49,277 bases of DNA from a virus (Duplodnaviria > Heunggongvirae > Uroviricota > Caudoviricetes). The stretch lies in IMG/VR virus record IMGVR_UViG_2534682330_000007; one strand, written 5' to 3'. Below are positions 1,331 to 49,277 of the stretch, one piece after another. The translations under genes were made by a program, and so were the position numbers. The notes beneath the pieces are model-generated. The model did not search any database, was not told where the DNA came from, and was given only the letters and a program-made list of their open reading frames with translations. How positions within the stretch are numbered: the stretch's first letter is position 1; each line of letters opens with the position of its first letter.

Positions 1331-1430
1331 GCTTTTTTATACTAAGTTGGCATTATAAAAAAGCATTGCTTATCAATTTGTTGCAACGAACAGGTCACTA
1401 TCAGTCAAAATAAAATCATTATTTGATTTC
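1331..1430. other. attL: lambda att core GCTTTTTTATACTAA (1331-1345) followed by P' arm with Int arm-type sites
   Basis: Exact 15-bp lambda core, then GTTGGCATTATAAAAAAGCATTGCTTATCAATTTGTTGCAACGAACAGGTCACTATCAGTCAAAATAAAATCATTATTTG as recalled for lambda attP right arm; int lies immediately adjacent. Confidence 0.9.
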
Positions 1431-42933: not shown

Positions 42934-42943
42934 TGGGGTGAAT

Positions 42944-45900
42944 ATGGCAGTAAAGATTTCAGGTGTACTGAAAGACGGCACAGGAAAACCGGTACAGAAC
43001 TGCACAATCCAGCTGAAAGCAAAACGTAACAGCACCACGGTGGTGGTGAACACGCTGGCCTCAGAAAATCCGGATGAAGCCGGGCGTTACAGCATGGACG
43101 TTGAGTACGGTCAGTACAGCGTTATTCTGTTGGTGGAAGGATTCCCGCCGTCACATGCCGGGACCATCACCGTGTATGAAGATTCCCGACCCGGTACGCT
43201 GAATGATTTTCTCGGTGCCATGACGGAGGATGATGCCCGTCCTGAGGCACTGCGCCGTTTTGAACTGATGGTGGAAGAGGTGGCGCGTAACGCGTCCGCG
43301 GTGGCACAGAACACGGCAGCCGCGAAGAAGTCAGCCAGCGATGCCGGCACATCAGCCCGTGAGGCGGCAACCCATGCGACTGATGCTGCAGGCTCAGCAC
43401 GCGCAGCCAGCACGTCAGCCGGACAGGCTGCTTCGTCGGCTCAGTCAGCGTCTTCCAGCGCAGGAACGGCATCAACAAAGGCCACTGAAGCATTAAAAAG
43501 TGCTGCCGCTGCAGAGTCCTCAAAAAGCGCGGCGGCTACCAGTGCCGGTGCGGCGAAAACGTCAGAAACGAATGCGGCAGCGTCACAACAATCAGCAGCC
43601 ACTTCTGCATCCACCGCGACTACGAAAGCGTCAGAAGCAGCCACTTCAGCACGGGATGCGTCGGCTTCAAAAGAGGCGGCAAAATCATCAGAAACGAACG
43701 CAGCCTCGAGCGCCAGCAGCGCAGCTTCCTCGGCAACGGCGGCAGCAAATTCTGCGAAGGCGGCAAAAACGTCTGAGACAAACGCCAGGTCTTCTGAAAC
43801 GGCAGCGGAACAGAGTGCCTCAGCTGCGGCAGGCTCAAAAACAGCGGCTGCGTCGTCTGCCAGTGCAGCGTCAACAAGTGCCGGGCAGGCCTCAGCCAGT
43901 GCCACCGCCGCCGGAAAATCGGCAGAAAGCGCCGCATCGTCTGCTTCAACAGCCACAACGAAGGCTGGCGAAGCCACTGAACAGGCCAGCGCAGCAGCGA
44001 GGTCTGCTTCCGCAGCGAAGACATCCGAAACGAACGCGAAAGCGTCGGAAACCAGCGCAGAATCCTCAAAAACGGCTGCCGCATCGTCCGCCAGTTCGGC
44101 GGCGTCATCGGCATCATCTGCGTCTGCTTCAAAAGATGAGGCGACCAGACAAGCGTCAGCAGCGAAGAGCAGCGCCACGACGGCATCCACGAAGGCAACA
44201 GAGGCGGCAGGCAGTGCGACGGCAGCATCTCAGAGCAAAACTACTGCTGAATCCGCTGCGACCCGTGCGGAAGCTGCTGCTGATCGTGCTGAAGAGATTG
44301 CCGGTGCAGTTGCGATGGAAGACGCAAGCCTTACAACTAAAGGTGTTGTGAAACTTAGCAGTGCTGTTGATAGCACCAGTGAATCGCTGGCCGCAACGCC
44401 AAAAGCAGTTAAAGCAGCCAATGACAATGCGAATAGCAGGGTGCCATCTAACCGAAAAGTTAACGGAAAAGCACTGACTGCGGATATAACATTAACGCCG
44501 AAAGATATTGGTACTTTAAATTCAGTAACGATGTCTTTCTCTGGCGGGGCTGGGGGGTTCAAACTGGCTACGGTTACCATGCCACAAGCGAGTTCCATCG
44601 TTTACATCGCATTGATTGGTGGCGCTGGTTACAACGTCGGTTCCCCACATCAGGCAGGCATTTCAGAACTGGTTCTACGAGCAGGCAATGGAAACCCCAA
44701 AGGAATTACCGGGGCTTTGTGGAAGCGTACAGCCGTCGGATTAACGAATTTCGCCTGGATCAACACATCCGGCGATACATATGATATTTACGTTGAGATT
44801 GGCAATTATGCGACGAGTGTAAATATCCATTGGGATTGTACTGCAAATGCGTCAGTTTCTGTTTATACCTCGCCAACATATTCAGCGAGTAAGCCTTCCA
44901 GCGTTACCTATGGTGTTGTTTATACGATGTATAGCTCACATCAGAAACCTACACCATCAGATATTGGAGCACTGCCAACAACCGGAGGAACAGTTTCAGG
45001 TCCGTTGTCTGTTACAGGTGGATTAACTGGTTCATTGAATGGTAATGCAAGTACAGCCACGAAATTGCAGACGGCAAGATCTATCGGTGGAGTTGTTTTC
45101 GACGGTTCTGCAAATATTAACCTTCCAGGTGTAAACACTACGGGTAATCAGAACACCACTGGTAATGCTGCAACTGCTACAAAACTTCAGACTGCAAGAA
45201 AAATATCCGGTGTTCCATTTGATGGTTCTACTGATATCACTTTAACCGCCGCGCATGTGGCTGCTTTTGCCAGAAGGGCAACGGATACATATGCCGATGC
45301 GGATGGTGGCGTTCCCTGGAATGCCGAATCAGGCGCTTACAATGTCACCCGCTCTGGCTACACCTATATTCTGGTTAACTTCTATACCGGAGTCGGAAGT
45401 TGCCGGACCCTGCAGATGAAGGCGCATTACAGAAATGGAGGTCTGTTCTACCGTTCCTCAAGAGATGGCTATGGTTTTGAGGAAGGCTGGGCAGAAGTTT
45501 ATACCTCGAAAAATCTTCCACCAGAAAGCTACCCAGTTGGCGCACCAATCCCGTGGCCATCAGATACCGTTCCGTCTGGTTATGCCCTGATGCAGGGGCA
45601 GACTTTTGACAAATCTGCTTACCCGAAACTTGCAGCGGCTTATCCGTCAGGCGTGATCCCTGATATGCGTGGCTGGACGATTAAGGGCAAGCCCGCCAGT
45701 GGTCGTGCCGTATTGTCTCAGGAACAGGATGGCATTAAATCGCATACCCACAGCGCCAGCGCATCCAGTACGGATTTGGGGACGAAAACCACATCGTCGT
45801 TTGATTACGGCACTAAATCCACGAATAACACCGGGGCGCATACCCATAGTATTAGCGGGACCGCAAATAGTGCCGGTGCGCACCAACACAAGAGTTCCGG

Positions 45901-46222
45901 TGCATTTGGTGGCACGAACACGAGCATTTTCCCTAATGGTTATACCGCGATTTCAAATCCAAGCGCGGGGATTATGAGCACAACAAGCGGTAGTGGCCAG
46001 ACTCGTAATGCAGGGAAGACATCATCAGATGGTGCTCATACCCACTCGCTGTCCGGCACAGCAGCATCTGCAGGTGCACATGCACATACTGTCGGTATTG
46101 GTGCGCATACGCACTCGGTTGCGATTGGTTCACATGGACACACCATCACCGTTAACGCTGCTGGTAACGCGGAAAACACCGTCAAAAACATCGCATTTAA
46201 CTATATTGTGAGGCTTGCATAA
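42944..46222 (+). CDS. stf: Side tail fibre protein Stf (long form with expanded Ala/Ser-rich repeat region)
   Basis: ATG 42944 gives [69 protein letters not shown] (lambda Stf N-terminus); C-terminal His-x-His repeats (GAHTHS, GAHAHT) typical of Stf/gp37-type fibres. Confidence 0.9.
43290..44270 (+). repeat. Low-complexity coding repeats in stf (reiterated motif around AKTSETNA in an Ala/Ser-rich tract)
   Basis: Motif KTSETNA or SSETNA occurs at least four times in the protein; the DNA is GC-rich and repetitive, which generates many spurious overlapping ORFs in other frames. Confidence 0.8.
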
Positions 46223-46803
46223 TGGCATTCAGAATGAGTGAACAACCACGGACCATAAAAATTTATAATCTGCTGTCCGGAACTAATGAATTTATTGGTG
46301 AAGGTGATGCATATATTCCGCCTCATACAGGTCTGCCAGCAAACAGTACCGACATTGCACCGCCAGATATTCCAGCTGGCTTCGTGGCTGTTTTCAACAG
46401 TGATGAGTCATCGTGGCATCTCGTTGAAGATCATCGGGGTAAAACGGTTTATGACGTGGCTTCCGGCGACGCGTTATTTATTTCTGAACTCGGCTCATTA
46501 CCGGAAAATGTCACCTGGTTATCCCCGGAAGGGGAGTTTCAGAAGTGGAACGGCACAGCCTGGGTGAAAGATGCAGAAGCAGAAAAACTATTCCGGATCC
46601 GGGAGGCGGAAGAAACAAAAAACAGCCTGATGCAGGCAGCGAATGAGCATATTGCGCCACTTCAGGATGCTGTAGATCTGGAGATCGCAACGGAGGAAGA
46701 AACTTCGTTGCTGGAAGTCTGGAAAAAGTATCGGGTGTTGCTGAACCGTGTTAATACAACAACTGCTCCGGATATTGAATGGCCAGTAGCACCTATAGGG
46801 TAA
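46222..46803 (+). CDS. tfa: Tail fibre assembly protein Tfa
   Basis: 193 aa [78 protein letters not shown]; start overlaps the stf stop. Confidence 0.9.
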
Positions 46804-46886
46804 ATTCGTAATGATTACCTAAATACGTTATTCTTTTGTTCAAAAAGTGATTTTGCTATAGGTAGGGAGTATGTTCTTGGATTAAG

Positions 46887-46920
46887 AATAAAAAATCGCC
46901 ATGAAAGAGCTTCATGGCGA
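46887..46920 (-). terminator. Minus-strand intrinsic terminator (TCGCCATGAA-AGAGC-TTCATGGCGA then U-run) with no annotated gene upstream
   Basis: Perfect 10-bp stem; the T-run (plus-strand AATAAAAAA) lies on the minus-strand 3' side, so it terminates leftward transcription from the AT-rich right arm. Confidence 0.5.
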
Positions 46921-47662
46921 GTACATAAACGTACAAAATGTGATGAAAGTAGAGTGGCGTAAGCCACTATATTAAGATGTGACAATAGCGAACAAAAGTA
47001 AATAATATTTTATGGACGTTTAATTGTTAATTATAAAAACTAGAGTGCCCGATATTGTTTATCTTGCTTTAAAATAATGTACTCAAACCAAATTTTTGAG
47101 CTAAAAGCTCAAATAATATAAATGCAATGATAATGTTTAATAAGACAATTAGCTTGCTTTGTATTTTCATTTCGGAATACTGTTAAGTAACTTTGATGAC
47201 CCTAACAATAGATCGGAATTTTCTTAGAGTCAATGGTCACTGTTTTTGTTTGCAAAGCAAATGTTTTGGTGGTTATAAGTTGTCTTAATATAGTCACGCA
47301 TGCAACTTGCTCCATGCGGAGATTAAAGATTGGAATATAACGCGAAGATGGAATTAAATTACATTTGCAATAATCAATTTATTATTACTCAATAATTACC
47401 GATATTATTATTGTAAATTAATCATTAGAGTGCAAAAAGAAATGTAACGGCAAAATAAGAGGACGATAGCTGAGAAAAAAGCGTGCTTTCCCAATCTGGG
47501 GCAAATCACGTCTGAATGACACCTGAAAACAGGTAGTAGCCTCAAGAAGGCTTGGAATATTCTTCTTTAATGTTATGTAATTCATTGATTTTTCGTGTAC
47601 GATTTTAAGACATTTATTCCAAGAAAAATTTTTAACTCTTTGATTTTTCGACTCTGTATCAT

Positions 47663-47724
47663 CGGTCTCGAAAACCGGAGTAGGGGCAACTCTACCGGGG
47701 GTTCAAATCCCCCTCTCTCCGCCA
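47663..47724 (+). tRNA. Partial tRNA: 3' two-thirds of a class II tRNA-Ser(CGA)-like gene (anticodon arm, long variable arm, T arm, acceptor 3' strand, CCA); 5' part absent
   Basis: GGTCTCGAAAACC anticodon stem-loop with CGA anticodon, long variable arm, GGGGGTTCAAATCCCCC T arm, TCTCTCCGCCA 3' end; no matching 5' acceptor strand or D arm upstream. Confidence 0.7.
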
Positions 47725-48306
47725 CTTTATCAATGACTTATCTCCCGACTTCCCGCCTTGCTTTTCCTAAACAGAACAATCGTAGAATATTCTTGAAGGG
47801 TTAGATCGTCACTGTTTTCTGTTCGATACTGTGACATTCAGCACTTGATTCGCTATGGATCTGACAGGAAGGTTTTGAGCGAAAATTTGCAGTTATTCAG
47901 TCGTTTTCTTATCGGTCACCATTATTCTTTTAGACATTGATCCTACAAAGCTGCCGCAAAGTTGGTGGTAGGAACTGAAGTTGCGTAGAGAAGGGGTCAA
48001 TACCCGGAGGCAAACATGGGCTGGCAAAAGTGTAGCGGTATTAGGCGCAGCTATTTAGCCTAGTTATGTTTTATGAAAACTTGATATCATATAAGTGTCT
48101 TACTTATTGGCTGTAAATAAGTTTTTCCTAAGGAATTGTTTCTTGAGTATCATTTGTAACTGTAACGGAATTTATAATCCTTTGCTTTATTGTTACGGTA
48201 TTTTTTATCACACCCTATTTTTAGTGGTTTTTTATACTGAAGTTTGGCAAAGTGAACTTTATATACATATACTTCATCCTGGTTTCAGTTAAATTGGGTG
48301 GATGAT

Positions 48307-49050
48307 ATGGCAACTACATGTTCAGTTATATTGATTTTGGAGTCCTTTGATGTTTATTTCGGAAAAGAGAGTGTGTTTCTGGAGAGAGGTTCATCTGTAC
48401 TTGTCGACTCTAGCTCTAGAGATTTTTTCCTGACATATCCTGAAAGAGTGATAGTGGCGGATTTTGGCGCTGAGTTTATTAGTCGCTATTTGAAAGCTAA
48501 TAACTTAAGGGATATTTCTGATTGTAGGGAATATCCATCTTATTTAAAAATAAACTTTGCTGACTTCAGTTTAATTAAAGGATTAATTAGTTGGGCTAAT
48601 CACTGTGCTGAATACATAGAAATTTTTGATGAGTCTATTGCTTTTACATGTCTCTCTGCATTTTCTTCTGAAAAACAATTTGGAGTATTTCTGTTTGAAT
48701 GTTTGAAAAGCACAGGGGCTAAAGTTAAAACGATTATTCATACGGATTTATCTGCACCATGGCGTCTTAAGGATATATCATCAAGATTATATCTCAGCGA
48801 AAGTTTACTAAAGAGGAAATTGAAAGAAGAGGGGGTATCATTCAGTAAGATCATACTTGATGAGAGGATGCAAATGGCTGAATATTTACTCTGCACTCGT
48901 TGTTATCCTATTAGTAAAGTAGCTAAGGTCTGTGGTTATGCCAGTGTCTCATACTTTACTTATGTATTTAGACGTTATTTTGGTGTTTCTCCAAGTCAAT
49001 ACTCTCAGAGGAGTTCAGAAAGTAAAATTCTTACTCACCAGGGAATCTGA
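48307..49050 (+). CDS. AraC/XylS-family transcriptional regulator (prophage cargo; AppY/PatE-like position)
   Basis: ATG 48307; C-terminal tandem HTH region (ISKVAKVCGYASVSYFTYVFRRYFGVSPSQY) typical of AraC family; AT-rich gene downstream of the tail fibre genes. Confidence 0.8.
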   Translation: MATTCSVILILESFDVYFGKESVFLERGSSVLVDSSSRDFFLTYPERVIVADFGAEFISRYLKANNLRDISDCREYPSYLKINFADFSLIKGLISWANHCAEYIEIFDESIAFTCLSAFSSEKQFGVFLFECLKSTGAKVKTIIHTDLSAPWRLKDISSRLYLSESLLKRKLKEEGVSFSKIILDERMQMAEYLLCTRCYPISKVAKVCGYASVSYFTYVFRRYFGVSPSQYSQRSSESKILTHQGI

Positions 49051-49054
49051 TCAT

Positions 49055-49277
49055 TGTTCTTGCCCCCTTATTTCCAGACAGGGGGTGTATCTTAAGTTAA
49101 CGTTACCCGCTGACGTCGATATTCTCGCGGAGAGCGATAACCCAACGCACTGTGCGGATGGTTTTCATTGTAATGTTCGATCGCCACTGCAAGATTATGC
49201 AATGCCGTTCTTACATTCGGTTTCGGCATGAACGCGATGTAGTCTTCCTTCATCGTTTTCACGAACCTTTCTGCCAT
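49055..49277 (-). mobile_element. IS2-like (IS3 family) insertion sequence, end only; continues beyond the window
   Basis: Terminus reads (reverse complement) TGTCTGGAAATAAGGGGGCAAGAACA, resembling the IS2 right end as recalled; begins 5 bp after the AraC-family stop codon. Confidence 0.6.
49092..49277 (-). CDS. IS2-type transposase OrfB, C-terminal 61 codons only (truncated by window edge)
   Basis: [55 protein letters not shown], the C-terminal motif of IS3-family DDE transposases, closest in memory to IS2 InsD; the leading M in the track is an edge artefact. Confidence 0.7.

Follow-up and report, generated by a model that had tools for sequence, protein, structure and literature searches.

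A fossil serU attachment junction carried as cargo in a lambda-site prophage, and its apparent use as a target by other phages of Escherichia coli

The viral record IMGVR_UViG_2534682330_000007 (Caudoviricetes; 49,277 nucleotides, this whole stretch of DNA being called the window below) contains a prophage integrated at the lambda attachment (att) site. Towards its right end, at positions 47468-48002, lies DNA that belongs to a different history of integration: a fossil right-hand prophage-host junction (attR) formed at serU, the gene of tRNA-Ser(CGA), with its phage-side P arm, its core and its host-side B' flank, this last being a captured piece of the host DNA that follows serU. We give this reading a probability of about nine in ten. 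The relic is carried by isolated phages and, in three complete genomes of E. coli, another prophage of the serU type sits exactly in it; it thus appears to act as a secondary target for phages that normally integrate in serU.

The core of the junction is half a tRNA gene. Positions 47663-47724 (plus strand) reproduce, with 62 of 62 identities, nucleotides (nt) 29-90 of the 90-nt serU gene of a K-12-like genome (locus L003), of which they are an exact suffix. From the second base of its anticodon stem onwards, nothing of the tRNA is missing: the loop is CUCGAAA, and there follow the long variable arm, the T arm and, with the terminal CCA, the 3' strand of the acceptor stem. Sequence comparison over the 100 nt upstream of 47663 found no likeness to the 5' half of serU. 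The preliminary description, made from the letters alone, had proposed such a 62-nt tRNA-Ser 3' part, deprived of its 5' acceptor strand and D arm, and this is what we find, with unrelated DNA upstream. The limits that it gave to the feature, 47595-47804, have to be abandoned, as they are those of a mechanical 69-amino-acid (aa) open reading frame (ORF) with a GTG start that reads through the fragment. It had rightly placed the fragment in AT-rich surroundings: the G+C content is 29-33% over 46750-47650, upstream, and 40-43% in the fragment and the DNA beyond. Room had also been left for a complete, functional tRNA, or for a segment matching no tRNA-Ser 3' end at all. The match to serU is perfect, and no tRNA came out of either search: ARAGORN called no tRNA gene in the whole window, and Rfam, at its gathering thresholds, returned no tRNA there either, its sole families being IS009 and the lambda cIII thermoregulator. 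A permissive Rfam scan gave partial matches at the level of the T arm only (plastid psbI-rps4 antisense, sX4 and the T arm of tmRNA), which the tRNA-like character of the T and variable arms explains. With positions 29-90 standing alone after unrelated DNA, there is no complete cloverleaf of a class II tRNA-Ser, and the fossil yields no tRNA.

What stands on either side of the core identifies the junction. On the left, positions 47468-47662 (plus strand, 195 bp) are homologous to the attR-proximal right end of the lambdoid prophages of serU, and we take them as the P arm. On the right, positions 47725-48002 (plus strand, 278 bp) are the intergenic DNA that extends from serU towards yodB, that is, the B' side of attR. 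Core and spacer together (47663-48002) are colinear with positions 2938-3277 of L003, the spacer part being about 97% identical to the DNA that follows the intact serU gene, and a 277-nt query (47726-48002) finds a 96-98% match in 5405 of 5426 complete E. coli genomes, usually in one place, beside serU. Over the entire block 47468-48002, identity to the attR region at serU is 97% in a sequence type 131 (ST131) strain (L004) and in an O111:H8 strain (L005), and 47540-48002 is 95% identical to phage SerU-LTIIb (KU052038), where the GenBank record annotates the same 62-mer as a pseudo-tRNA-Ser at attR, just before yodB. The ST131 and O111:H8 prophages run in the same order, with gpJ, lom, stf and tail genes, then cargo (NleC in O111), the 195 bp, the 62-mer, the spacer, and yodB or zinT; and the core starts at the same point at the native serU attR of L004, L005 and L008. 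At the attL end of the ST131 lysogen, no more than 28 bp separate an intact serU from the tyrosine integrase gene after it, and the displaced 62-mer is at attR. The site is a familiar one: Sp14 of O157 Sakai is situated between yodB and tRNA-Ser(cga) (PMC8190617), and serU is among the listed sites of Stx phages (PMC8065619). The window thus reproduces the 3' part of the target exactly, with homology to a serU element on one side of it and, on the other, the DNA that follows the native tRNA gene. We also considered that it might be the live attP of a serU phage, a candidate which was rejected: as 278 bp of the native serU-yodB spacer follow the core, rather than a P' arm and an int gene, this is attR and not attP.

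The junction is an orphan in its present location. The left end of the window is occupied by ybhC (1-1284, 727 bits to the equivalog PRK10531), then by the lambda att core of attL, GCTTTTTTATACTAA, at 1331-1345 (plus strand; a single exact match, with 0.01 expected by chance), and then by the gene of a 356-aa tyrosine recombinase (1419-2489), the core lying between ybhC and int. The preliminary description had placed the prophage at the lambda att site, and this arrangement agrees with it. Because the lambda core at 1331 was used, the serU relic is not the integration module of the window prophage. A cognate serU attL and a serU integrase are absent from the other end of that prophage, and with ybhC, a lambda core and an integrase of lambda length in their place, the relic is not a boundary of the prophage that carries it. 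The proposal that the half tRNA is cargo, left by a second integrative element with a tRNA gene as its target, is therefore borne out by three pieces at once: serU core, P arm of serU prophages and serU-yodB spacer.

How could such a junction become part of a phage? A lambdoid phage would once have integrated in the serU gene. The most likely route of capture is then an imprecise excision of the kind that generates lambda-bio phages, or an equivalent illegitimate or insertion sequence (IS)-associated joining, which would have drawn the right prophage-host junction and at least 278 bp of spacer into the phage. The lineage would later have gained a lambda-type attP-int-xis module by recombination, leaving the serU junction as passive cargo of the b region. 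Since core, B' side and P arm have all been retained, the relic should still be a substrate for serU-specific integrases. Incoming serU phages would integrate into it, creating tandem prophages at ectopic positions of the chromosome, and homologous recombination between tandem lambdoid prophages would replace the arm and the cargo to the left of the relic.

The captured DNA ends at a sharp breakpoint. Directly after TCAATA, at 48002, the window diverges from the native sequence, and positions 48003-48058 (plus strand) belong to an IS630-family element, of which they are the terminal 56 bp, with 93-98% matches to the 3' ends of copies of the IS630/ISEc33 family. In strain Nissle (L012), the matching DNA consists of the final 33 nt of the transposase coding sequence and 23 nt more, the latter presumably being the terminal repeat. 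The host flank therefore abuts an internal point of the IS element. Beyond it comes the gene of a 250-aa AraC/XylS regulator of the YdeO/GadX type (48298-49050, plus strand; NCBIfam YdeO 2.7e-43 and GadX 3.1e-32, both scores falling under the equivalog cut-offs), and the cassette is closed by the C-terminal remnant of an IS3-family, IS2/ISEc48-like transposase (49092-49277, minus strand; NCBIfam IS2 TnpB 5e-24, IS3 family 2e-12), which runs off the window and is annotated as a partial integrase-core pseudogene at every related locus. Positions 47662-49274 are 99.6% identical in DNA to a copy that O157:H7 strain TR01 has at about 313 kb, in its CP-933H-like remnant. The gene patE, which is z0321 on O island 8 (OI-8), codes for an activator of acid resistance that represses the locus of enterocyte effacement (LEE) (PMC10877973). 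The regulator of the window is probably the orthologue of PatE of O157:H7, its equation with z0321 resting on position and sequence identity. The PatE-like gene is always accompanied by the serU fossil and by the remnants of both IS630 and IS3. In O157:H7 TR01 (L006 9014-10195) and in strain 103605 (L010 7750-8919), a P4-like satellite begins a few hundred bp past the IS3 remnant, with an integrase, then cargo of the defence type (for example SIR2 or ABC-three-component genes), psu and ogr/delta.

This layout invites another account of the regulator, namely that in some unsampled ancestor IS630, AraC and IS3 formed a chromosomal island directly after serU, and that a serU prophage captured a piece of more than 1.6 kb whole, in which case the regulator would be transduced host DNA and not phage cargo joined later. 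The flank, the IS630 remnant, the AraC gene and the IS3 remnant are indeed always together, with identical breakpoints, and the regulator is bracketed by IS remnants. However, when a chimeric query joined the 5' side of an intact serU to the flank, the IS630 remnant and AraC, none of the 5426 complete E. coli genomes displayed this arrangement. A scan of one genome per species likewise found no flank/IS630 junction, its single 21-mer match falling in a metagenome-assembled genome of Methylobacter (NZ_SCTW01000028.1, L019). This was rejected as a true junction: there is no other similarity to the window there, and one such match is at chance level for a 21-mer in 596 Gb. Furthermore, the flank meets an internal point of the IS element, and not an IS end at a TA target. 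We consider that a chromosomal origin of the island is unlikely, and prefer to see the host spacer as the part of the cassette that came with the captured serU junction.

Two main arms are found to the left of the relic. Among viral contigs of IMG/VR, 29 contain the junction; the left arm is of the window type in 8 of them and of a second type, terminating in a LEM-3-like GIY-YIG gene, in the other 21. Whichever the arm, it adjoins the core at one and the same nucleotide, and native serU attR regions also have examples of each. Nested insertions were sought with chimeric queries in which a left arm and the core were followed by P' and int as they stand in the serU prophage of ST131. Junctions of the P-O-P' form that had only the 195-bp arm (for example in noe1104, L016) were left out of the ectopic count, as they may be ordinary tandem lysogens at native serU. 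Three genomes, 2013C-3264, CD45 and Z1323HEC0067, have an effector-carrying prophage of roughly 50 kb, with a serU-type integrase, exactly at the fossil, and in all three a complete prophage is flanked by both recombinant junctions, that is, target arm-core-P'-int on one side and P arm-core-target flank on the other.

In 2013C-3264 the left side reads lambdoid tail genes, tfa, the equivalent of window positions 46054-47662 (96%), the core, the P' arm, the serU-type int, a xis-like gene and exo. Some 50 kb further on, the right side reads an espJ-side arm, the core, the 278-bp flank, the IS630 remnant, AraC and the IS3 remnant, matching window positions 47660-49277 at 99.1%. The inserted prophage is Sp14-like and carries tccP and espJ; the espJ arm is at the ectopic site in this genome only, and at native serU in many O157:H7 genomes. 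In CD45 and Z1323HEC0067 the left arm is that of the GIY-YIG type, and the inserted lambdoid prophage carries NleB2/NleC'/NleH/NleF; the right junction runs from a window-type P arm (from 47541) to the core, the flank and AraC. The site is the pao locus in CD45; in Z1323HEC0067, yagU is about 8 kb away from it and the interval has no annotated pao genes. Three sites are thus occupied, at least two of them independently, and by this comparison of junctions the relic would be a genuine secondary target for serU-type phages.

The junctions also carry the trace of where the strands were exchanged. In all three cases, the core of the left junction has the variable arm of the phage type (G..C, GTGGGGGCAACTCCAC), and the core of the right junction that of the native type (A..T, GTAGGGGCAACTCTAC), a partition of markers identical to that between attL and attR of the native ST131 lysogen. 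In 2013C-3264 even the first base of the core derives from the incoming arm. The crossover must therefore have taken place within the first 18 nt or so of the core, in the anticodon stem-loop, which is where tyrosine integrases that target tRNA genes usually cross over. The serU-type int is an uninterrupted ORF of about 345 aa (MGRRRKNPEHEK...PRKYSK) in five genomes (L014 7249-8299, L015 9490-10540, L016 9286-10336, L051 7490-8540 and L052 7487-8537), although PGAP flags a frameshift. Judging from these features, the nested insertions would have been catalysed by the serU-type Int. The end of this gene runs into the P' arm: its last codons share sequence with the tandem TTGGAATATTTTC repeats there.

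These repeats have counterparts in the arms. The motif TTGGAAT[AT][AT] is present three times in tandem within the P' arm beside the serU-type int, and four times in the 49-kb window, three of these at 47330-47622. Two copies stand in the P arm, TTGGAATAT at 47552 (plus strand) and TTGGAATAA at 47614-47622 (minus strand), and these two are kept in the otherwise unrelated arm of the espJ type. We propose them as candidate arm-type Int sites.

Could the relic be inert, and the arms and the nested prophages result solely from RecA-dependent recombination through the 340-bp repeat formed by core and flank, without any integrase? For the exchange of arms this would be enough, as homologous DNA on both sides (340 bp to the right, kilobases of tail genes to the left) suffices, and arm boundaries at the start of the core are expected either way. 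Junctions of the form arm-core-P'-int, by contrast, could arise only if an attP or an attL recombined within the 62-bp core, not in the 340-bp repeat; the exchange lies 5' of the variable-arm markers in three cases out of three, as it does at native serU; and the int ORFs are intact. We regard an inert relic as distinctly unlikely.

To be sure, several observations weigh against a captured junction that is still used by integrases. Only three sites are occupied among several hundred carriers, and two of these may share ancestry. RecA, by recombining the 62-bp core, would make identical junctions, though the crossover falls in a consistent position in the three genomes. For 2013C-3264, whose native serU locus was not located, a complex double rearrangement is conceivable. 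The GIY-YIG type of left arm has no obvious TTGGAAT motif; not every arm fits one integrase. Finally, with a host flank that ends inside an IS630 remnant, the capturing junction may have been made by an IS-associated rearrangement.

Two further observations concern the genomes with nested prophages. In 2013C-3264 (NZ_CP027544.1, L017/L018), the potC-mfd region, with a potC prophage, is about 0.5 Mb from fadL, and the AraC cassette adjoins intS-argW, not ybhB, which together indicate large prophage-associated rearrangements in this chromosome. In the NleB2/NleH/NleF prophages, a fragment annotated as YkgJ (L050 8092-8180, L053 17609-17697) stands between nleF and the P arm; ykgJ being a chromosomal gene beside yagU, this may be another fossil of a captured host flank in the cargo region.

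The relic is widespread, and it travels in phages. Positions 46800-49277 are found with 98.9-99.4% identity in the isolated phages PhiR70_1, ev099 and mEp332; in ev099 its neighbours are tfa on one side and, at a distance of about 0.9 kb on the other, a lambda-type int-xis. Packaged, viable phages therefore carry the block, and host DNA is contiguous with an att junction inside packaged phage genomes, as in a specialised transducing phage. Of the complete E. coli genomes, 220 have the block with a left arm of the window type. Positions 47726-48290, which run across the junction between the flank and IS630, are covered to 80% or more in 536. The loci are diverse: the lambda/bio site (avian pathogenic E. 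coli (APEC) O78), the pao/yagU end of a prophage of the thrW region, and positions beside P4-like satellites. Large rearrangements mediated by prophages are seen in related genomes of Shiga toxin-producing E. coli (2013C-3264 for example), and the fragment might then reflect a strain-specific rearrangement of the chromosome, by inversion or translocation between a serU prophage and the lambda-site prophage, rather than DNA carried by a phage. This is very improbable here: the identical block is present in the three isolated phages and the 29 IMG/VR contigs, and the same truncation at 278 bp, with no continuation into yodB, recurs at several chromosomal loci, which excludes an event proper to one strain.

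Most copies have kept all 62 nt of the core, yet some have decayed. The T stem has lost one nt, GGGGG becoming GGGG, in two of them (L020 13353 and L022 10581), an IS of about 1.3 kb is inserted in the T arm of a third (L026 5274-6664), and there are two substitutions in the T loop of L053, where the core is on the minus strand. Decay of this sort argues against selection for a tRNA function. In APEC E956 (L011 5288-5985), an IS1A stands in place of the fossil: the match to the window breaks off at 47552 and begins again at 48103, and the serU core and flank have therefore been deleted there. We hardly credit the view that the segment is a live alternative attP of the window phage, or a functional tRNA or tRNA-like gene: conservation of the core in most copies would suit it, but host DNA follows the core where a P' arm and a serU-type int should be, the lambda core at 1331 was used, no tRNA is predicted, the 5' half is absent and copies decay elsewhere.

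Many of the ingredients are established: the 3' footprints left by elements that integrate in tRNA genes, serU as a site of lambdoid phages, specialised transduction, and secondary or tandem integration. The nearest relatives of the relic are the attR of serU prophages (Sp14/CP-933U of Sakai, that of ST131, and SerU-LTIIb, KU052038), which have the same 62-nt segment, a P arm about 95-97% identical and the same host flank; the window differs from them in that its junction is away from serU, in a lambda-site prophage, with a flank cut at 278 bp and without a serU-type int of its own. In the specialised transducing phages lambda-bio and lambda-gal, host DNA is contiguous with an att junction in a phage that forms virions. 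mEp332, ev099 and PhiR70_1 resemble them in this respect. Here, however, the host DNA is only 278 bp of non-coding spacer, the capture is ancient and fixed in the lineage, the phage has another integration specificity, and the excision is a matter of deduction. Partial copies of the target, such as icdC of e14 and ttcC of Rac in K-12, or 3' fragments of tRNA genes, mark the boundaries of integrated elements; icdC and ttcC are at the active boundary of their own element, whereas the fragment of the window is an orphan, found in another element and at other loci. Finally, SGI1 is reported to use secondary attachment sites and to integrate in tandem, and the integrase of lambda is said to make use, off-site, of a sequence other than its primary attB. 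The use of a non-primary site, with tandem or ectopic arrays, is common to these systems and to ours, in which the secondary site is the full-length primary core, carried by a mobile phage and hence transmissible. A limited literature search found no earlier description of the fossil, nor of a phage-borne serU target used by other phages.

Other features of the window have no bearing on serU. A full-length match to Rfam IS009 (46565-46763, plus strand; 213 bits for a gathering score of 117) is contained wholly inside the ORF of the tail-fibre-assembly gene tfa (46222-46803), and this candidate family of small RNAs appears to have been modelled on a coding segment of tfa. After tfa, the AT-rich positions 46990-47381 are 93-95% identical to the post-tfa region of the Qin-like prophage beside ydfJ in many genomes; this piece is common to the DNA that follows tfa in these prophages and has no link with serU. 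In the side tail fibre (1094 aa, 42938-46222), a repetitive middle rich in Ala, Ser and Thr (43100-44600) generates many long spurious ORFs of up to 283 aa on both strands.

In general, the relic teaches us that the "junk" of the phage b region can record former integration sites. Prophages that carry type III effectors have landed in a phage-borne copy of serU, and the integration map of such phages in pathogenic E. coli is thus not fixed by the chromosome alone; the typing of prophages by their "insertion site" can mislead for the same reason. The relic lies directly upstream of a PatE-like regulator of acid resistance and of LEE, and the history of its recombination is that of the spread of this regulator among prophages. 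It is possible, and we offer this as a tentative view that we still rather doubt, that the junction works as a transmissible landing pad: a lambda-type phage would bring a serU target to new hosts and new positions, where it would recruit serU phages loaded with effectors (TccP/EspJ, or NleB2/NleH/NleF). Were this true, the cargo of the right arm would be exchanged beside the PatE regulator, possibly with co-mobilisation, and the diversity of the left arms would be the record of repeated visits mediated by integrases.

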